Below are positions 1 to 7,624 of a stretch of 7,624 nt of DNA, piece by piece. The translations under genes and the position numbers were made by a program. The stretch lies in IMG/VR virus record IMGVR_UViG_2671180828_000013; one strand, written 5' to 3'. The notes under the pieces were generated by a model, which did not search any database, was not told the origin of the DNA, and was given only the letters and a program-made list of their open reading frames with translations. The first letter of the stretch is position 1; each line of letters opens with the position of its first letter. This DNA is from a virus (Duplodnaviria > Heunggongvirae > Uroviricota > Caudoviricetes).

Positions 1-585
1 TTACGCACCAGCCTTTTTCTGGGTTACATTTAAATGATTAACCTTAGCTTCACATTCTTCATAAATCTCTCTTACAGTATCATCGGGTAACTCTTGTAGA
101 CTCAATGCTAGTGCTCTTTTGACTCCGCTCAATGAGTGCAGTTTTTGAATATCTGTATCAAGCAAAACGGTTAGTAGTTCGGCCCCTTTTCTGATCAATA
201 AGTTGGACAAAATCTCTTGTTCAGATGAAGTTAGCGAGTCCCACGCCCTCATGATGATGGAATCACTATCATCAATTCTTTGTTTTTTTGTTCTTTTTGT
301 TTGTTCAATTGGTTCTTTTTTCATGCTTGGCTCATCACAATAACCATTGACCAGCCACTCCATAGATACATGTTCTCTTTCTGCAATGTTCTGGAGATGG
401 TGCTTTCTTGGTTGTGGTGGCGGCTGATTGTTTCTCCTTTTGTAGTAGTTCTGCAATGTCTGAACGTTTATTCCCCATGCTCTAGCCGCCTCACTTCTCG
501 ATTTGTAACGCTCTGCAAGACGAAAAATCCGTTCGATCACTGGTTCTTTTCCTTCGTCGAGAAAAGAACTGTTTTTCATGTTCAT
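1..585 (-). CDS. Phage CI-type repressor with N-terminal helix-turn-helix domain
   Basis: 194-aa ORF from ATG at 585-583 (second in-frame ATG at 579-577) to TAA at 3-1. AAGGAA Shine-Dalgarno about 9 nt upstream on the minus strand (plus coords 595-600). N-terminal stretch ERIFRLAERYKSRSEAARAWGINVQTLQNYYKRR ... MEWLVNGY fits the HTH pattern of phage CI-type repressors. Divergent to a Ner-like gene as in a Mu-type immunity region. The ORF-track extension to 714 is AT-rich and low-complexity (NNRTNKRTKSR...) and is treated as non-coding leader. Confidence 0.75.
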   Translation of the reverse strand: MNMKNSSFLDEGKEPVIERIFRLAERYKSRSEAARAWGINVQTLQNYYKRRNNQPPPQPRKHHLQNIAEREHVSMEWLVNGYCDEPSMKKEPIEQTKRTKKQRIDDSDSIIMRAWDSLTSSEQEILSNLLIRKGAELLTVLLDTDIQKLHSLSGVKRALALSLQELPDDTVREIYEECEAKVNHLNVTQKKAGA

Positions 586-752
586 GCTCTCAGGTTCCTT
601 TTTATTTATCTTATTGATATTAATAACAAAAACACCGCAAAGAATAAAAAGAACAAAATACCTTGATTTGGTTCTTTTGTTTGTTCTATTATTTACCCGT
701 ACAGATATCCGCACGAATATCCGCGCGGGTAACTTTTTAGAATAGAGGAAGT
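586..752. promoter_or_regulatory. Divergent switch region between repressor and Ner-like genes; expected to hold operators and both promoters
   Basis: 167-bp AT-rich intergenic region between divergently transcribed regulator genes. Contains a tandem direct repeat ATATCCGC (705-712 and 717-724, 12-bp period), a TTATTGATATTAATAA near-palindrome (about 611-626) and a GTTCTTTTGTTTGTTC motif (671-686). Function is inferred from position only. Confidence 0.5.
663..692 (+). promoter_or_regulatory. Candidate sigma70-type early promoter for the Ner-like gene and downstream operon
   Basis: TTGATT (663-668) as -35, 18-bp spacer, TATTAT (687-692) as -10, about 60 bp upstream of the ATG at 753; GAGG ribosome-binding motif at 745-748. 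Hexamer matching by eye only; alternative -10 candidates exist (e.g. TAGAAT at 738-743). Confidence 0.3.
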
Positions 753-1001
753 ATGAGTAGAAGAGAAGTTTCAGATCACGATTGGCCGCCTGAAATCATC
801 AAGGCGCGCTTACACATGGCTGGCTTATCACTGCGCTCTTTATCTTTAAAGGCTGGTTACAGCAGGGATTCGCTGAAAAGCGTATTACGTACTCCTTGCC
901 GACCGTATCAGCAAATAATTGCTGATGCTCTTGGGGTATCGCCTGAAGAAATCTGGCCCAGTCGATACCAGGTTAAGAGCTATATGAGAAAGGCGTCATG
1001 A
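753..1001 (+). CDS. ner: Ner-like DNA-binding transcriptional regulator (Ner/Nlp family)
   Basis: 82-aa ORF. Sequence DWPPEIIKARLHMAGLSLRSLSLKAGYSRDSLKSVLRTPCRPYQQIIADALGVSPEEIWPSRYQ matches the recalled Ner/Nlp pattern (DWH.ADIIAGL ... LS..S...G......L.NAL.R.WPKGE.IIA.AL...P..IWPSRY). TGA stop at 999-1001 is followed 1 nt later by the next ATG. Confidence 0.85.
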   Translation: MSRREVSDHDWPPEIIKARLHMAGLSLRSLSLKAGYSRDSLKSVLRTPCRPYQQIIADALGVSPEEIWPSRYQVKSYMRKAS

Positions 1002-1002
1002 T

Positions 1003-2421
1003 ATGTATGTCATTGCAAAAGAACTGATTGGCGCGCCCGGAATGCCTGCTACAACAAAAGGTATTCGCCAGGCATTACAACGTTACGTACAAGGGAAAAG
1101 CTGTTGTTCCCGTCGTCGCTCAGGCTCTAAAGCAACTGAATACAGCATCGACTGTTTACCTGAAGTGACGCAGCAGGCATTACGTGAACGCTACGCCCTG
1201 CAACTGATGACTCAAAAAGTCGATGAATCACCGGCTCCAGTGGTGACAAAGGCCAGACGCTCGCCTGCCGTGGTTGATGCGGTGGAGGCATATCGCGGAT
1301 CACCACAACTGATGGTCGAACGCCTTAATGCCCTGACTGAAAACCAGCGCCAGGTGGCTGATGCACGAATCGCGATCGTCAGCGAAGTTCTGAAAGTCGC
1401 GCAACAACCTGGTTTCAGCTGTGCGAAGGCTACCGCCCCTTCGGTGGCAGAAGATACGGCAGCTGCGCTGGAGCAGAAAAGCGGCTCAGCAATGAATCAG
1501 CTGTTTAACACACTTTCAGACGGCTGGACGGTGATTTCAGACGGTCTGCATGATGTACAGGCCATGACCGACACCATCAGCGATAAAATTGATGCGCTGG
1601 AGAATGCCGTTTCAGGGATGGGGATTGTGCAGGATATCAGTGCCTTTACGGCCAGTTTTACTGCCCTGAAAGGGAATGCCGCCGCCCTGATTAATGCGCC
1701 CCGTCGCATGGCTGAATCGCTGGCCGGAATGTTTGCCGTGCTGGCGGGGCTGCCCGGCGATCCTTCCCTGTCGCTGACCGGAAAAGCCGGAACGCCGTCC
1801 GGCAGCCTGACCACAAACCGTGACAGCACGACAGAGCAGGCCATGCCGCAGCTGTACCGCACACTTTCTTCCCTGCGTTACACCCTCAGCGAACAGGATG
1901 ATCCGCAGCGCCTGATTGGTCTGACGCCTGCGGCACAGAACAATATCCGTCTGCTGCGGAGCGTCATGCAGAGTGCAGCCCTGGTGTCGCAGGCGCAGAC
2001 GGTCGGAAAACTGCTGGATCAGGTCATCCGGCAGAATACGACGCACGTTCAGGATACTGACCGTGCGGGCGGACTGGCCTGGCTGGAAAGTTCTGCTGAT
2101 GTGCAGCGTATCAACCGGGATTTGAGCGATGTCATGGAACAACAGGTGCTGGATCTGTCCGCACAGGGCCATACCGGCACCGCCCTTACATTACGTGATG
2201 CAGGGCTTGCGCTGACAGAAGATTTAACCACGCGGAGCGTGCATCTTCCCGGTGCTTTTCAGGTCATGGTGCGAACCACCGAACCGGCACTGGTCACGCT
2301 GTACCGTGCCACCGGTAACAGCCGCCGCTGGCAGTATTTTGTCCGCAGAAACAATATCCCCGATCCGGTTTTTGTTCCGGGTGGCCGCCGCGTGGAGGTG
2401 ATCAGTGAGCAGCAGGATTGA
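1003..2421 (+). CDS. Hybrid ORF: MuA-transposase-like N-terminal DNA-binding domain (about the first 150 aa) continuous with a tail protein at the Mu gp43 (N) position (or tape-measure-derived segment); probable deletion-derived in-frame fusion
   Basis: ATG at 1003, TGA at 2419-2421. N-terminus ...APGMPATTKGIRQAL...SGSKATEYSIDCLPEVTQQAL resembles the recalled MuA N-terminus (...LPGLPKTSAGVIYVA...GVKGGKAIEYNANSLPVEAKAAL), and a following ENQRQVADARIAIV stretch resembles the MuA SDSQRRLAEKWLPAV region. No DDE catalytic-core-like sequence follows; the remainder is Ala/Gly/Ser/Thr/Leu-rich like tail/tape-measure proteins. Its 3' end overlaps the hub gene start by 17 nt, the position of the gene preceding the hub in Mu-like tail modules. 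Confidence 0.55.
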   Translation: MYVIAKELIGAPGMPATTKGIRQALQRYVQGKSCCSRRRSGSKATEYSIDCLPEVTQQALRERYALQLMTQKVDESPAPVVTKARRSPAVVDAVEAYRGSPQLMVERLNALTENQRQVADARIAIVSEVLKVAQQPGFSCAKATAPSVAEDTAAALEQKSGSAMNQLFNTLSDGWTVISDGLHDVQAMTDTISDKIDALENAVSGMGIVQDISAFTASFTALKGNAAALINAPRRMAESLAGMFAVLAGLPGDPSLSLTGKAGTPSGSLTTNRDSTTEQAMPQLYRTLSSLRYTLSEQDDPQRLIGLTPAAQNNIRLLRSVMQSAALVSQAQTVGKLLDQVIRQNTTHVQDTDRAGGLAWLESSADVQRINRDLSDVMEQQVLDLSAQGHTGTALTLRDAGLALTEDLTTRSVHLPGAFQVMVRTTEPALVTLYRATGNSRRWQYFVRRNNIPDPVFVPGGRRVEVISEQQD

Positions 2422-3529
2422 ACTGTATATCGGCGGCAGTATTTTTTCCGGCTGGCTGACGGTCAGCGTCCGTCGCTCGCTGGAGCATCTGGCCGGGTCG
2501 TTTGAACTGGGGCTGATGCTGCCCGGTGAGCGCATCCCCTCAGCCCTGCGGACCGGTCAGCCCCTGACGCTCAGAATTAACGGGCAGACGGTCATCAGTG
2601 GCTGGCTGGATCAGGTCAGTCAGCGGATCAGTGCAACCCGTCATCAGATCAGCATCAGCGGTCGGGATAAAACCGGCGACCTGGTGGACTGTGCCGCCAT
2701 CCATCCCGGCAGCCAGTGGCGCAACCGGACGCTGGCACAGATTGCCGCAGATTTATGTGCGCCCTTCGGGATAGCCGTGCGCTGGCAGGTTAACGACGAC
2801 ACGGCTGCACGCCCCTTCAGCTCTTTTACGCTGGAAAACTCAGAAACCGTGGCGGATGCGCTGACCCGTGCTGCCCGGCATCGCGGGGTGCTGGTGACCA
2901 GTAATGCTGACGGCGATCTGGTGTTCACCCAGGCAGGAAGCCAGCAGACGGACAGACTGGTGCTGGGAGATAACCTGCTTGATGCCGATTACAACACGGA
3001 CTGGCGAGGACGATACAGCGAATACCGTGTCCGGGGACACGGGCGCGGTGGTGGCAAACGGGGAGACAGCGAATCCGCCGCCCGTCTGGCAGCACCTGTG
3101 GGCGTCATCAGTGATGAGCAGATCGGCCGCTACCGGCCGAAAATCATCCTCGCCGATCAACAGACAGACATCACCGGTGCACGGCAGCGTGCCCTGCGTG
3201 AAATGCGCCGTGCGATTGCCCGTTCAGAACGGTTTTCTGCCACCGTGCGTGGCTGGTTCCGGGATGATGGCCGGTTATGGGATGTCAATCTGCTGACCGG
3301 TGTTTCAGCCCTGCGTTTCGGTATAGAACAGACTGAACTGCTGGTCTGTCAGGTGGAGTTTTTACTTGATGAGCATAACGGGGAAGTCACCCGGCTGGTA
3401 CTGGCACCGCGTGACGGCTTTATCGTTCCGGCAGAGCCGGACAGTAAGGGCCGGGGTGGTTCCGGTGACGATGTTGATGCCTTTATTCGCCAGCAGATGA
3501 AAAAACAGGGGATCAGCTTTGATGAATGA
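2405..3529 (+). CDS. Baseplate hub protein (Mu gp44 / P2 gpD late-control-D family)
   Basis: 374-aa ORF with GTG start at 2405 preceded by GGAGG (2394-2398) at 6-nt spacing; overlaps the upstream ORF by 17 nt. Size and sequence character (IELYIGGSIFSGWLTVSVRRSLEHLAGSFELGL ...) fit the gpD/gp44 family; TGA at 3527-3529. Confidence 0.8.
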   Translation: MSSRIELYIGGSIFSGWLTVSVRRSLEHLAGSFELGLMLPGERIPSALRTGQPLTLRINGQTVISGWLDQVSQRISATRHQISISGRDKTGDLVDCAAIHPGSQWRNRTLAQIAADLCAPFGIAVRWQVNDDTAARPFSSFTLENSETVADALTRAARHRGVLVTSNADGDLVFTQAGSQQTDRLVLGDNLLDADYNTDWRGRYSEYRVRGHGRGGGKRGDSESAARLAAPVGVISDEQIGRYRPKIILADQQTDITGARQRALREMRRAIARSERFSATVRGWFRDDGRLWDVNLLTGVSALRFGIEQTELLVCQVEFLLDEHNGEVTRLVLAPRDGFIVPAEPDSKGRGGSGDDVDAFIRQQMKKQGISFDE

Positions 3530-4133
3530 TGAAGTGTTCAGCCGCCTGATTGCCCCGGTAACGCGCGGTATTCGCCTGTTGTTTGGCCGGGGCGTTCTGA
3601 CCGGCACACATGACGAACTGAAAATGCAGAATGTGCAGCTCACCGGCATGGACGGCGAAACCTTTGATGATGTGGAGCGTCCCCAGCAGTACGGGCAGAT
3701 CAGCGTTCCCCTGCCGGGTGCGGAAACCTTTTTTGCCTGTCTGGGCGGACAGCGGGATCAGACTGTGGTGCTTGTGGTGGAAGACCGGCGCAGCCGCCCG
3801 ACCGGACTCACAGCCGGAGATACGGGGGTGTATCACCATGAGGGGCACCGGATACGGTTAACAAAGGATGGCCGCATTATTGTGACATGCAAAATGCTGG
3901 AGATTTACGCCGACGAGGGGATGCGGGTGGATACGCCGGAAGCCACCTTTACGGGCAATGTGACGGTGGATAAGAACCTGCATGTTAAGGGTAATTTCGC
4001 GCTTGAGGGTACGGGGAAATCTCAGGGACTGTTCACAATGTCGGATGCCGTTATTGCAGGGATACGGTATTCCGGCCATGTGCATCATGATAACGGCGAA
4101 GGCAGTAAGACAGGAGTGCCGGAGAATGGCTGA
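3522..4133 (+). CDS. Baseplate spike / baseplate assembly protein V-like (Mu gp45 family)
   Basis: ATG at 3522 (the ORF track opens at an in-frame TTG at 3519) overlapping the hub gene stop; about 203 aa, consistent with gp45/gpV-type proteins. Position directly after the hub gene. TGA at 4131-4133 overlaps the next start. Confidence 0.75.
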   Translation: MNDEVFSRLIAPVTRGIRLLFGRGVLTGTHDELKMQNVQLTGMDGETFDDVERPQQYGQISVPLPGAETFFACLGGQRDQTVVLVVEDRRSRPTGLTAGDTGVYHHEGHRIRLTKDGRIIVTCKMLEIYADEGMRVDTPEATFTGNVTVDKNLHVKGNFALEGTGKSQGLFTMSDAVIAGIRYSGHVHHDNGEGSKTGVPENG

Positions 4134-4563
4134 TATTGCAATTGTGTGGGATCAGGGATGCGGTTCGCTGCAACTGAACGGTGCCGACCTGCTGACGGAT
4201 GACAGTCTGCTGACGGCCGTTCTGATTTCGCTGTTTACTGACCGCCGGGCGCTGGCATCGGATGAAATCCCTGACGGTACGCGCGACCGCCGGGGATGGT
4301 GGGGAGACAGTTTTCGCCCGCGCCCCATTGGCTCCCGTCTGTGGCTTCTCAGCCGGGAAAAAACGCTGGCCTCGGTGATAAGCCGTGCCCGTGCTTACGC
4401 GGATGAGGCGCTGGGCTGGCTCAGTCAGGATGGCGTGGCGTCATCCGTGGTCTGTCATGCAGAACGTGTGGGACACGCGCGGCTGGCGCTTTCGGTGCGC
4501 ATAACCCTGCCTGATGGTTCAGTGAGGCCCATGATTTTTTATGCTGATCTTAAGGGGGAGTAA
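4126..4563 (+). CDS. GP46 / gp25-like (GPW family) baseplate wedge protein
   Basis: Start chosen at internal ATG 4126 (MADIAIVWDQGCG...), with AGGAG at 4112-4116 and ATGGCTGA overlap with the preceding stop. The upstream part of the 3982 ORF is out-of-frame overlap with the spike gene. 145 aa, typical for this family; TAA at 4561-4563. Confidence 0.8.
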   Translation: MADIAIVWDQGCGSLQLNGADLLTDDSLLTAVLISLFTDRRALASDEIPDGTRDRRGWWGDSFRPRPIGSRLWLLSREKTLASVISRARAYADEALGWLSQDGVASSVVCHAERVGHARLALSVRITLPDGSVRPMIFYADLKGE

Positions 4564-5645
4564 TGCCTTATCAGCCTTTACCGCTGGCACAGTTAATCAC
4601 GCAGACACAGCAGGATATCAGCCAGCGCCTGCCCGGCTCGCAGCCGGGTGTGAATGAAACCACCCTGAATGCCATTGCTTACGCTCAGGCAGGGTTATCT
4701 GCTCAGGAGCATGAGCATCTGGCCTGGATTGCGCGTCAGATCATCCCGACCGAAGCCGATGAAGCCGAACTGCTGAAACACTGTGCATTCTGGGGCGTCA
4801 TGCGTAAGCCTGCCTCTCGGGGGGACGGGCCGGTTCAGCTGATGCTGACCACGGATGCGGGGATCAAGGAAGGTGTGCTTCTCCAGCGAAGTGATGGCGT
4901 GGTTTACCGTATCACCACCTCCCTGACCGGTAAGGCCGGTACGCTGAATGTCAGTGTGGAAGCCGAAAGTGCCGGTCGTGCGGGGAATGCCCCGGCAGGG
5001 ACAAAACTGACATTTATCACACCGCAGGCGGGGATCAACCAGACGGCCACGGTGACCGGAACGGGGATCACCGGTGGTGCGGATGTGGAAACCGTGCCGG
5101 AGCTGCTTTCCCGTCTGGTTTTCCGGGTGCAGAATCCACCGTCCGGCGGCACGCAGTATGATTTTGAACGCTGGGCGCGTGAAGTGCCGGGCGTGACGCG
5201 GGCATGGTGCCGCCCGGAATGGCCGCAGGCGGGCAGCGTGGGGGTAACGTTTGTTCAGGATAATAACCCGGATATTTTCCCCGGTGACGGTGATGTTCAG
5301 CGGGTGGCGGATTATATCCGCAGTCATGATGATCCGGCGACCGGCCAGCCTGTCGGACAGCCTCTGGGGCCGACGGTGACCGTGTTTAAACTGACCAATA
5401 AGCCGGTGCCCTTCAGCATCAGGATCATCCCGAAAACACCGGAGAATCAGGCGGCCGTAAAACAGGCGCTGACCGACCTGTTGTATAACGAATCCCGGCC
5501 CGGCGGTCTGGTTCTGCCGTCGTCTTTCTGGCGGGCGGTGGCAGGGGTGAAAAATCTGGAGGATTTTGAAGTGCGCAGTCCGCTGACGTCAGTTCAGGCG
5601 GGAGACAGTGAGCTGCTGACGGTAGGAGAAATCACATGGCTGTAA
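4563..5645 (+). CDS. Baseplate J-like protein (Mu gp47 family)
   Basis: 360-aa ORF; ATG at 4563 in a TAATG overlap with the previous stop; GGGGGAG Shine-Dalgarno at 4554-4560. Size and position after the gp25-like gene fit baseplate J. Confidence 0.85.
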   Translation: MPYQPLPLAQLITQTQQDISQRLPGSQPGVNETTLNAIAYAQAGLSAQEHEHLAWIARQIIPTEADEAELLKHCAFWGVMRKPASRGDGPVQLMLTTDAGIKEGVLLQRSDGVVYRITTSLTGKAGTLNVSVEAESAGRAGNAPAGTKLTFITPQAGINQTATVTGTGITGGADVETVPELLSRLVFRVQNPPSGGTQYDFERWAREVPGVTRAWCRPEWPQAGSVGVTFVQDNNPDIFPGDGDVQRVADYIRSHDDPATGQPVGQPLGPTVTVFKLTNKPVPFSIRIIPKTPENQAAVKQALTDLLYNESRPGGLVLPSSFWRAVAGVKNLEDFEVRSPLTSVQAGDSELLTVGEITWL

Positions 5646-6196
5646 CCCTGACCCCGCATCAGCGCGCCCTGTTGCAGTTACTGCCTGACGGGCTGGCATG
5701 GGACAAGCGTCCGTCATCCGTACTGGCATCATTATGTCTGGGCCTCAGTCATTCGACAGCGCGTGTATCCTGGACGGGTAAACAGCTGCTTGCCGAGCGT
5801 TTCCCTGACACGTCGCGCCTGCTGCTGGAAGACTGGGAGCGTTATCTCGGGCTTCCCGAGTGTGATATGGCCGGAGCCACCCTCACGGAGCGACAGCGTT
5901 ATGCCGGAAATAAATACCGGATGAAGCCCTCGCTGAACCGTGAATTTTATATCCGGTTTGCGGCGGAGTTTGGTTATCAGATTGACATTCAGCCCTCACC
6001 GGATTCGCAGTGGGTCAGTATTGTCACGATTAACAGTGAAACCGGCTACCGGAATATGAATGTGCTGGATGATATTCTCACGCCGCTGCGTATTTATGAA
6101 GGCGGTGCGCTGGAATGTATTCTGAACCGTTATAAGCCTGCATGGCAGACGTTTATTTACGTTTATGCAAACAGCCATGAAGAGGAGACTATTTAA
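5636..6196 (+). CDS. Mu gp48-like baseplate/tail protein (YmfQ / DUF2313 family)
   Basis: 186-aa ORF; ATG at 5636 overlapping the baseplate J stop (TAA 5643-5645); AGGAG at 5624-5628. N-terminus [26 protein letters not shown] and the size fit the gp48/YmfQ family that follows baseplate J in Mu-like modules. Confidence 0.8.
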
Positions 6197-7077
6197 TGTT
6201 TCATGTTGATAATAATTCCGGCGTGGCGAATATGCCTGCGCTGGCACCGGCGCAGAGTAATACCACAACCTGGTTTACCGAAGGTGACGGACAAAAAGGT
6301 ATCAGCTGGATTGGTCAGGACTGGCTGAATATTCTCCAGGCCGAACTGCTGAATATTCTGGCTGAAGCCAGTATTCAGCCGGATAAGGCGCAGTTAAACC
6401 AGCTTACGCTGTCCATTAAAGCCATTATCGCTGCGAATGCCTTTTCCCGGAAAAATAACCTGAAAGAAATTGCTGATGCCGGTGCGGAGGCCCAGCGTCT
6501 GGCCCGTGGTTATCTTGGTCTGGGGACGCTTGCCACAAAAAACAGTCTTGGTCCCGGTGACGTTAATGCCCTGGCGAAGGATCAGAATCTCGCCGACCTG
6601 GAGAATAAGGGAACCGCCCGTAATAATCTGGATGTTTACAGCAAAAGCGAAGGTGATAACCGTTACCTGCGCAGGGAGCAGAACGGCGCAGACATTCCGG
6701 ATAAAGGGGCTTTTATCGATAACGTCGGTTTACGGGAAACGGTAAACAGGGCGGCGAATGCCCTGCCATCGGACGGCACCGCCGTTGCCGCGAACAGGCT
6801 GGCAAATGCCCACACAATTAATGGTGTTCCCTTTGACGGGACGCAGGATATCACTATCTCATCAGGAACAGTAACCGCCATAAGACTGGGGTCGGTGACC
6901 GCACATATGCCCGGAACATGGGAAAGCTGGGATCTGAATCTGGGGGGCGGCAATGTTCTTACCGGAATTAAAGTACAGGATGTCGGTAAGAATACGGCAG
7001 ATAACGTCGGCGGCGTGTATTACCGGCCGTTGCAGTATCTGTTAAATGGAGCATGGGTGACGGCTGCAAGTATATAA
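6196..7077 (+). CDS. Tail fibre protein (Mu S-like: constant N-terminal part plus a short variable C-terminal part)
   Basis: 293-aa ORF; ATG at 6196 in a TAATG overlap; GAGGAG at 6183-6188. N-terminus [33 protein letters not shown]...[16 protein letters not shown] resembles conserved tail fibre N-terminal domains. Contains a gix-like site at codons about 173-181. TAA at 7075-7077. Confidence 0.8.
6713..6738. other. gix/hix-like crossover site for a Gin/Hin/Pin/Cin-family serine DNA invertase
   Basis: TTATCGATAACGTCGGTTTACGGGAA matches the recalled Mu gix sequence TTATCCAAAACCTCGGTTTACAGGAA at 22 of 26 positions (13 of 14 in the right half). It lies about 175 codons into the tail fibre gene, where the constant/variable boundary sits in Mu S. 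A convergent tail fibre assembly gene follows downstream. Confidence 0.55.
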
Positions 7078-7085
7078 TGATATTC

Positions 7086-7105
7086 AGAAGGCCTTCCGGC
7101 CTTCT
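7086..7105 (+). terminator. Hairpin terminator between convergent tail fibre and tail fibre assembly genes
   Basis: Perfect 8-bp inverted repeat AGAAGGCC (7086-7093) / GGCCTTCT (7098-7105) with TTCC loop, followed by TTATT on the plus strand. Sits in the 31-bp gap between the stops at 7077 and 7109. Confidence 0.6.
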
Positions 7106-7108
7106 TTA

Positions 7109-7624
7109 TTACTGTGGCTGCTCAGGCCATTTAATGGCGTTAAATTCAGCTTCTGTTTTAATGGCGGGTAGTTCCATTTTCTTCACCTGACTGATGTATG
7201 CCATCCATTGGGTAAGTGCTGCTCTGTCTTCATCGCTGATGGTGCCCAGTTGTAGCTCCGTTCTCCAGTCATTAATTTTTTCATATGCCTGATTAAGATA
7301 TGACTGGCGCATTGCTTCCAGTTTTCTTGCGTAGTTAACCGGAATACGGGAGATTATGCCATTATCAAACTTCCAGTTTCCTGAAATATCCGTGCCTTCA
7401 GGGAGTTCATCGACCTCAACCACAGAAAACCCCGCAGGATACAGCGCCGAGGCGTCCTGTGATATTGAGCAGATAACGCCGCTGTCAGGTGTTATGCAAA
7501 GTTTATATTTTTTGGTGAATAATGGCAGGGATTCGTAGAAATCCTTACCATCTTCACTCTGGAAATACTGAACATTATTACCATATGGCATATTTTCAGG
7601 ATAATAACGGGTTATATTTTTTAG
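7109..7624 (-). CDS. Tail fibre assembly protein (Mu U / U'-type chaperone), 5'-partial at the window edge
   Basis: Stop TAA at 7111-7109 (minus). C-terminus LGTISDEDRAALTQWMAYISQVKK ... KWPEQPQ is the classic tail fibre assembly motif, and YFQSEDGKDFYE ... GVICSI ... SGNWKFDNGI matches recalled Mu U features. The minus-strand frame stays open from the in-window ATG (7591-7589) to the window end (LKNITRYYPEN upstream), so the true start probably lies just beyond 7624. Confidence 0.8.
   Translation of the reverse strand, partial: LKNITRYYPENMPYGNNVQYFQSEDGKDFYESLPLFTKKYKLCITPDSGVICSISQDASALYPAGFSVVEVDELPEGTDISGNWKFDNGIISRIPVNYARKLEAMRQSYLNQAYEKINDWRTELQLGTISDEDRAALTQWMAYISQVKKMELPAIKTEAEFNAIKWPEQPQ

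Follow-up and report, generated by a model that had tools for sequence, protein, structure and literature searches.

A Mu-like prophage of Escherichia coli in which a deletion of about 25.6 kb places baseplate genes behind the lysogeny switch

Related elements and the gene map of the window

The DNA analysed here is related most closely to a type of intact Mu-like prophage represented by the prophage inserted at dcyD in strain AF39. Sp18 of O157 Sakai, 38.76 kb in length, is of the same type, and the insertion sites of Sp18-type prophages are strain-specific (PMC7430833). In phage Mu, the simple baseplate has eight components, from the tube initiator gp43 to the fibre gp49 with its chaperone gp50, and the N-terminal β-barrel of gp43 starts the tube and participates in baseplate assembly (PMC11915804). 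Late transcription of Mu requires MuC (PMC12867686).

The e14 prophage of K-12 has a repressor/Cro-like switch, then the deletion-made chimera ymfN (annotated as 'chimeric replication protein/phage terminase'), baseplate J (jayE), ymfQ and fibres; chaperones and the Pin invertase are also present, without sheath or tube. The element presented here has the same layout, and e14 YmfQ is homologous to its gp48 (28% identity, E 8e-17). However, e14 is older, decayed (pseudogenes jayE and stfE), integrase-based and widespread, while the window element is young, transposase-based, intact in all its ORFs and of single occurrence. Laboratory mini-Mu and Mud elements, like the window element, are Mu-type genomes that have been deleted internally but retain the left end and the immunity region. 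It differs from them in being spontaneous, in carrying late tail genes instead of a marker, and in lying on a contig without a right end.

The window, the whole stretch of 7,624 nucleotides that was analysed, is 100% identical to positions 8174-15797 of the E. coli draft contig CDQN01000133.1 (GCA_000938575.1) and contains no N. Contig coordinates are given below as L002, and the AF39 prophage loci as L001 and L003. The contig is a short-read draft, and its 3' limit lies 1 nt past the window, inside an invertible segment. A literature search found no paper mentioning the accession prefix CDQN01.

The sequence-only reading of this DNA had advised a search for Mu-type ends in the flanks, and a left end was found. 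It starts at L002 7913, 261 bp left of the window, with TGTAACC... and three TTTGATAC-type repeats of the transposase-binding kind, and the AF39 homology begins exactly at this point, at TGTAACCAGGTGAATCATTTGATACC. The chromosomal flank of the contig matches K-12 and other E. coli at 100% identity, and the insertion lies in the lipoprotein gene ybfP, adjoining pgm, in contrast to dcyD in AF39. The 5'-TG left end, the repeated sites and the strain-specific location are those of a transposable Mu-like prophage, as is the divergent c repressor/ner switch (phrog_3037, phrog_769, PF13693).

The features of the window are collected in Table 1. A baseplate and tail fibre module lies directly after the lysogeny switch, as had been proposed, and the gene map of 753-7077 contains no head, sheath, tube or tape-measure genes. 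Neighbouring genes overlap by 1-17 nt, and ner and the following chimeric gene are separated by 1 nt. The c repressor gene is equal in length to that of AF39 (L003 6001-6585), and the baseplate and fibre ORFs all have the lengths found in this intact relative. By analogy with Mu, the region between the divergent repressor and ner genes would contain the operator and early promoter; a candidate Pe-like sigma-70 site occurs at 663-692 on the plus strand (TTGATT-18-TATTAT, 9/12 matches). No strong terminator-like site was found between this promoter and the fibre stop. The only one 3' of the early promoter is the hairpin that separates the fibre gene from the convergent chaperone gene, and terminator-like sites overall are at chance level (10 found vs 8.0 ± 2.8). 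No RNA families (Rfam) were detected in the window.

Table 1. Positions of the features in the window
Feature	Position	Strand	Evidence or remark
c repressor, Mu-type, 194 aa, full length	1..585	-	phrog_3037 transcriptional repressor, E 1.5e-58, full-length match
Putative divergent operator/early-promoter region	586..752		between divergent repressor and ner genes
ner, Cro-like early regulator, 82 aa	753..1001	+	PF13693 HTH_35, E 2.5e-19; phrog_769, E 3.1e-26
In-frame chimeric ORF, 472 aa	1003..2421	+	transposase A N-terminal part 1003-1432; gp43 part 1433-2421
Deletion joint, 2-bp microhomology TA	1431..1432		~25,626 bp of parental prophage missing
gp44 baseplate hub, 374 aa	2405..3529	+	PF21683, PF22255, PF21929; Mu gp44 1wru, E 1.7e-110
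gp45 central spike, 204 aa	3519..4133	+	PF06890, E 5.7e-25
gp46, gp25-like wedge protein 1, 145 aa	4126..4563	+	PF07409, E 1.1e-37; gene call on contig
gp47, baseplate J-like wedge protein, 360 aa	4563..5645	+	PF04865, E 2.8e-62
gp48, wedge protein 3, fibre-docking, 186 aa	5636..6196	+	PF10076, E 7.5e-22
Tail fibre, 293 aa	6196..7077	+	Mu S 5yvq, residues 1-198, E 1.4e-45; phrog_1833, E 4e-141
Left inverted repeat, Gin-type invertible segment	6718..6866		partner past contig end
GC-rich hairpin between convergent fibre and chaperone genes	7086..7105	+	8-bp stem, 5 GC pairs
Tail-fibre assembly chaperone, 5' end cut by contig end	7109..7624	-	PF02413, E 4e-19; phrog_136

The deletion joint and its occurrence

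The 5' part of the chimeric ORF encodes the N-terminal DNA-binding domain of transposase A (PF02316 at residues 6-141), and residues 1-158 match transposase phrog_310 at positions 8-144 of 696. Residues 143-469 match phrog_184 at positions 125-411 of 411 and Mu gp43 (PDB 9ki1) at residues 140-495. Residues 1-143 of transposase A are fused in frame with gp43 from about residue 124. The gp43 protein is the DNA circularisation/tube-initiator protein.

The two halves of the window map to one intact prophage of about 39 kb in AF39, at places 25,626 bp apart. Window positions 1-1432 correspond to L003 6001-7432 with 2 mismatches, and positions 1431-7624 to L001 20001-26194 with 5 mismatches. The large deletion that had been suspected, which created the chimera, is thereby supported. 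It is also recent, as had been suggested, since both halves are 99.9% identical to the intact prophage; for the retained DNA as a whole the identity is ~99.8-99.9%, with 7 substitutions in 7.6 kb. A 5-bp microhomology (TACCG) was considered at the joint and rejected as the product of a BLAST gap; direct alignment gives 2 bp, TA.

According to the AF39 annotation, the deleted stretch contains the transposase core, B ATPase, kil, gam, a Mor/C-family activator gene and the lysis genes and, in its late part, the terminase, portal, head genes, sheath, tube, tape measure and the tube-initiator domain of gp43. Of the 696 residues of transposase A, only 1-143 remain. The element is a defective and not an autonomous derivative, because the A core with PF09299 and the B gene are located in the deleted stretch. 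What it retains in common with the AF39 prophage is the left end, the repressor/ner switch, gp43-gp48, the fibre and the invertible segment; the Sp18/AF39 type has the 25.6 kb from the A core to the gp43 N-terminus and is without the chimeric ORF and the ybfP site, which is unique to the window element.

This architecture is best explained by one illegitimate-recombination event at the 2-bp TA, with the loss of ~25.6 kb from a ~39-kb prophage. Codon 143 of transposase A is thereby continued in frame at about codon 124 of gp43. The left end was kept together with the repressor/ner switch, and the chimera is followed by gp44-gp48, the fibre and a part of the invertible segment. If the right arm, with gin, com and mom, is intact as well, the remnant would be about 13.5 kb long. 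The chance of an in-frame joint is 1 in 3, and an in-frame fusion with an intact downstream operon would equally fit a selected arrangement.

The joint is known from one draft contig. The exact chimera occurs in this contig alone and forms a one-member 90% cluster among ~15 billion proteins. None of 5,426 complete E. coli genomes contains a joint-spanning or ybfP-inserted element; the architecture is a singleton without conservation. A 43-mer across the joint had no match among GTDB species representatives or in JGI metagenomes, and a 22-mer had none in IMG/VR or the metagenomes. The lone 22-mer match, in Porphyromonas gulae, was treated as chance, as it covers exactly 22 nt with dissimilar flanks; about 0.07 chance matches are expected in 596 Gb on both strands (own arithmetic). 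Of the complete E. coli genomes, 229 carry the baseplate block and 231 the sheath/tube block, with no excess of baseplate-only remnants. The phage collection gave only two matching records, Stx phages with an inserted Mu-like phage, at 92.7% identity.

Completeness and selection of the baseplate genes

The gene order is the same as gp43-gp50 of phage Mu (N, P, Q, V, W, R, S, U), and homology extends to each gene, although no megablast-level DNA similarity to the Mu records of the phage collection was found. The differences from Mu are the truncation of gp43 and an invertible segment with one chaperone gene instead of two. The baseplate chain had been taken as complete from the sequence, and this holds for gp44-gp49, which are present at full length. 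It does not hold for gp43, in which the N-terminal PF07157 tube-initiator domain (Mu residues 1 to ~139) has been lost, and the set of eight baseplate components is not complete. The tail-fibre assembly gene is on the minus strand and is cut by the contig end. With a truncated gp43, no late activator and the chaperone on the opposite strand, the set is less complete than it first appeared.

The position of the chaperone gene on the minus strand, apart from the fibre gene, is due to the orientation of the invertible segment; its AF39 counterpart (L001 25679-26200) encodes 173 residues. The constant part of the fibre ends at about 6850, and the variable C-terminus is coded within the segment. 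Homology of flipped-orientation copies to the window stops at 6848-6868. In AF39 the inverted repeat at L001 25288-25436 pairs with 26472-26620 at 84-94%, and a reverse match is found for window positions 6708-6851.

A MuC-type late promoter (TTAT-N5-6-ATAA) was not found upstream of gp44 in the window, and the two such sites in the AF39 locus are not above chance. This result is uninformative either way, because the activator of this phage may have a different recognition sequence.

Sheath, tube and tape-measure genes were found neither in the window nor in the 8 kb of the contig to its left; the parent carries them within the part that was deleted. The earlier statement that a baseplate without sheath and tube cannot form a tailocin is in agreement with this. 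R-type tailocins likewise consist of phage-derived tail genes on a bacterial chromosome, with no head genes, but the window element is without their defining sheath, tube, tape-measure and lysis genes, and a tailocin was rejected on the absence of the first three.

All five differences to the right of the joint are lineage-specific, four being nonsynonymous and one synonymous; they include S53P in gp44 (substitution at 2561). The resulting pN/pS is ~1.3, from five substitutions that are too few for a firm dN/dS and may include sequencing errors; in intact relatives the value is 0.08-0.20. At least four nonsynonymous changes in five have a probability of 0.63 under neutrality, falling to 0.07 at omega 0.2 and to 0.006 at omega 0.08. 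A signal of purifying selection is missing in the baseplate genes, as far as these five substitutions extend. The intact ORFs need no selection, since a divergence of 0.09% gives only ~0.16 expected stop codons. The suggestion of selective retention finds no support in the single contig, in the 4:1 pattern or in the complete E. coli genomes. A domesticated module would be recognized by conservation across lineages together with purifying selection, and what was found is a singleton with four nonsynonymous lineage-specific changes to one synonymous.

These observations lead us to consider, with a probability of about 0.86, that the window covers the left part of an Sp18/AF39-type Mu-like prophage made defective by a recent single deletion of ~25.6 kb, in which the ORFs are not selectively maintained. 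The baseplate ORFs would be intact because the deletion is very recent and not because of selection.

Alternative explanations and biological meaning

One rival explanation is a misassembly, with gene A and gp43 joined wrongly on the contig and the genome itself still carrying the whole prophage. The short-read draft source, the contig end 1 nt past the window and the restriction of the joint to one place would agree with such an artefact, which is nevertheless very unlikely. A graph mis-join is unsupported because there is no repeat at the joint, where the parental sequences have only 2 bp in common. The contig is continuous without N from pgm across the joint to the fibre, while a coexisting intact copy should branch the graph and break the contig there. 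Lineage-specific substitutions are found on either side of the joint.

The module could also have been kept by the host as a baseplate/fibre operon under the repressor/early-promoter switch. It might then serve as a complex for receptor binding or adhesion, as a decoy, or as a donor in recombination with incoming Mu-like phages; defective prophages are able to donate parts. The seven intact, tightly coupled ORFs, the in-frame fusion and the lack of a strong terminator-like site from the Pe-like promoter to the fibre stop are consistent with retention. However, this intactness is expected anyway at 0.09% divergence, and a singleton with a substitution pattern that looks relaxed, no population of baseplate-only remnants, a gp43 without its tube-like domain, a missing tape measure and a chaperone on the opposite strand make retention extremely unlikely; the roles of parts donor and receptor-binding complex are bare speculation. 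A natural mini-Mu, with both ends and the enhancer kept and with transposition or packaging, together with flanking host DNA, by a related helper in trans, would be compatible with the defective prophage and does not exclude it. Laboratory mini-Mu with deleted A and B is mobilised in trans by a helper, and here the left end with its three repeats and the operator/enhancer region are intact. It is very improbable all the same, as the contig ends before any right end, a homoimmune helper would be blocked by the resident repressor, and one insertion site gives no sign of spread. Extremely improbable, too, is an accidental new operon leading from the early promoter through ner and the chimera to a nearly full baseplate/fibre set, with decoy, interference or mini-Mu roles. 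If it existed, derepression would lead the cell to produce baseplate-fibre complexes without a tail, for example as a particle for receptor binding or as a decoy; the chimera of the MuA DNA-binding domain and gp43 would bind the operator/enhancer and interfere with superinfecting Mu-like phages; and the element might be a natural mini-Mu mobilisable by a helper.

The remnant, being a defective prophage, is unable to transpose or replicate, to lyse the cell or to assemble a particle, and the capacity that plausibly remains is repressor-mediated immunity. Mobility and lysis functions are lost and an immunity region with a full-length repressor is kept, as in a cryptic or 'grounded' defective prophage (PMC6379469). 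The host would probably benefit from the loss of A, B, kil and lysis. Because the late activator is gone, read-through from the early promoter upon loss of the repressor would be the only way to transcribe the baseplate genes, and their products would be unable to start a tail. SOS induction would not be the proper trigger, since repressors of the Mu type are not cleaved through RecA.

The significance of the remnant is small. It is an ordinary defective prophage that shows cleanly how the decay of a prophage begins, here with a single microhomology-mediated deletion by which a Mu-like prophage is 'grounded', and its intact parent is known within 0.1%. It is important to note that intact, tightly coupled ORFs beside a young deletion need not be a sign of selection, and that a layout like that of e14, with switch, chimera, baseplate, fibre and invertase, can originate in a single step.

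Gene content and location of the element

Searches of Pfam, PHROGs and solved Mu structures gave matches that support each ORF assignment in the window, which contains no head, sheath, tube or tape-measure gene. On these assignments, the sequence-only reading was correct that baseplate and fibre genes stand in the window without head, sheath or tube genes. The eight plus-strand ORFs between 753 and 7077 have neighbours that are 1 nt apart or overlap by 1-17 nt.

Genes of the window and the basis of their assignment
Feature	Position	Strand	Basis
Mu-type repressor gene, full-length	1-585	-	PHROGs
ner	753-1001	+	PF13693
Chimeric ORF, 472 aa	1003-2421	+	Pfam, PHROGs, solved Mu structures
gp44 hub	2405-3529	+	Pfam, solved Mu structure
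gp45 spike	3519-4133	+	Pfam
gp46	4126-4563	+	Pfam
gp47 (Baseplate_J)	4563-5645	+	Pfam
gp48	5636-6196	+	Pfam
Tail fibre, 293 aa	6196-7077	+	PHROGs, solved Mu structure
Tail-fibre assembly (chaperone) gene	7109-7624	-	Pfam, PHROGs

The exact chimeric protein is on record from a single contig, CDQN01000133.1 (15,798 bp, NCBI assembly GCA_000938575.1; locus L002). Positions 8174-15797 of this contig are the window at 100% identity, so the contig stops one base past it. The left part contains chiP, ybfN, fur, fldA, ybfE, ybfF, seqA, pgm and a truncated ybfP, and this flank matches many E. coli strains, K-12 among them, at 100% identity. The flanking DNA does contain a Mu-type end: homology to a related prophage starts with TGTAACCAGGTGAATCATTTGATACC, which lies 261 bp to the left of the window, and this left end has three TTTGATAC-type repeats. 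The insertion disrupts ybfP, a lipoprotein gene beside pgm (L002 7572-7912), and does not recur in any of the 5,426 complete E. coli genomes. Sp18-type Mu-like prophages of E. coli occupy strain-specific sites (PMC7430833), and the parent of the window belongs to this group.

The deletion joint and whether it recurs

A single intact Mu-like prophage, about 39 kb long and located in dcyD of E. coli AF39 (NZ_OZ547136.1), contains both halves of the window. Window 1-1432 differs from it by 2 mismatches and window 1431-7624 by 5, and in AF39 the two matches are 25,626 bp apart. The joint is in frame: residues 1-143 of the 696-aa transposase, its PF02316 DNA-binding domain, continue into gp43 (452 residues) at about position 124, so that the PF07157 domain is lost. 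According to the AF39 annotation, the missing stretch contains the transposase core, B ATPase, kil and gam, the sole annotated Mor/C-family activator, lysozyme and other lysis genes, terminase, portal, protease and major head genes, and the sheath, tube, tail assembly and tape-measure genes. An 80-nt 'tRNA-OTHER' is also annotated in this stretch, between minor head and virion morphogenesis genes (AF39 locus L001, 10585-10664, minus strand).

The joint is seen in a short-read draft contig and might be an assembly mis-join. This is unlikely, because the parental sequences have no common repeat at the joint, sharing only TA, and the contig contains no N.

In none of the 5,426 complete E. coli genomes does a match cross the joint (best coverage ends at 1431), and clustering of about 15 billion proteins at 90% leaves the chimera alone in its cluster. 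The joint was not found in GTDB representatives, JGI metagenomes or IMG/VR, save for one 22-mer. This exact 22-nt match in Porphyromonas gulae (L009 2130-2151) was judged to be chance, its flanks having no similarity. In the complete E. coli genomes the gp44-gp48 block is present in 229 and the sheath/tube block in 231, and thus baseplate-only remnants do not form a population in this phage group. The same deleted architecture across strains is neither conserved nor recurrent.

Recent deletion or selective retention

The sequence-only reading had proposed recent deletion or selective retention for the intact ORFs. The five right-arm differences from AF39 are all lineage-specific, the other base being common to four intact relatives. 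Nonsynonymous changes account for four of them (two in the gp43 part, S53P in gp44, A121G in the fibre) and a synonymous change for the fifth, giving a pN/pS of about 1.3 versus 0.08-0.20 between intact relatives. Under neutrality, at least four nonsynonymous changes out of five have a probability of 0.63; at omega 0.2 the value falls to 0.07, and at omega 0.08 to 0.006. The right arm therefore has no sign of purifying selection, a result that, with only five substitutions, leans rather than proves. The serine-to-proline change at gp44 codon 53 (window 2561) falls in the hub's first domain, where it may be damaging, and fits relaxed constraint.

About 0.16 stop codons are expected from five random substitutions, and intact ORFs are thus as predicted for a very recent deletion. 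Together with the 2 + 5 mismatches to AF39, this supports recent deletion. The singleton architecture and the pN/pS value do not support selective retention, and the suggested roles as a parts donor or receptor-binding complex found no support either. Tailocin identity was rejected, as sheath, tube and tape measure are absent.

Fibre segment, known elements and remaining capacities

The chaperone gene is on the strand opposite to the fibre gene because the invertible segment is oriented so as to separate the two, leaving the 293-aa fibre without a co-oriented chaperone. Strain STEC2018-553 has the flipped form, a 296-aa fibre with the chaperone downstream. The Gin-type segment of this phage group has a single tail-fibre assembly gene (window 6718-7624; L001 25288-27263; related-prophage loci L005 8766-11272 and L008 7769-9508). 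Strain M3 has the window orientation, but has neither a recombinase gene nor a second fibre end. The contig ends inside the segment (window 7624, L002 15798), about 280 bp short of the expected right inverted repeat. This break may be due to the segment occurring in both orientations in the culture that was sequenced, or to related chaperone genes at other places in the genome. A conserved DUF6645 gene of about 2 kb, a candidate accessory (moron-like) gene, follows the invertase or fibre region in all examined relatives (L001 27349-29403; L005 11372-13411; L008 9508-11577).

Among known elements, the cryptic prophage e14 of K-12 comes closest in architecture. It has the repressor ymfK, Cro-like ymfT, the deletion-made chimera ymfN, a portal fragment, pseudo-J jayE, ymfQ (28% identity to the window gp48, E 8e-17), fibres, chaperones and Pin, while sheath and tube are absent. 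The window element, an ordinary defective prophage seen only once, looks like a young, single-step counterpart of the e14 state. A Mu-like phage with 92.7% identity to the window baseplate region is inserted in each of two Stx-converting phage records, LC727881.1 and LC727895.1, both about 93 kb long.

The gp43 protein is a hexameric tube initiator, which begins the tube with its N-terminal beta-barrel and stabilises the wedge-hub connection (PMC11915804). This N-terminal domain, the tape measure, tube and sheath are all absent from the remnant. MuC is required for Mu late genes (PMC12867686), and the Mor/C-family gene was in the deleted stretch. The only obvious route for baseplate gene expression would be read-through from the Pe-like promoter (663-692), from which no convincing terminator-like sites were found up to the hairpin at 7086-7105. 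Immunity is the most plausible activity left to the element, since the full-length repressor is kept. With A, B, kil and lysis lost there is no risk of lethal induction, in agreement with the 'grounded prophage' idea (PMC6379469).
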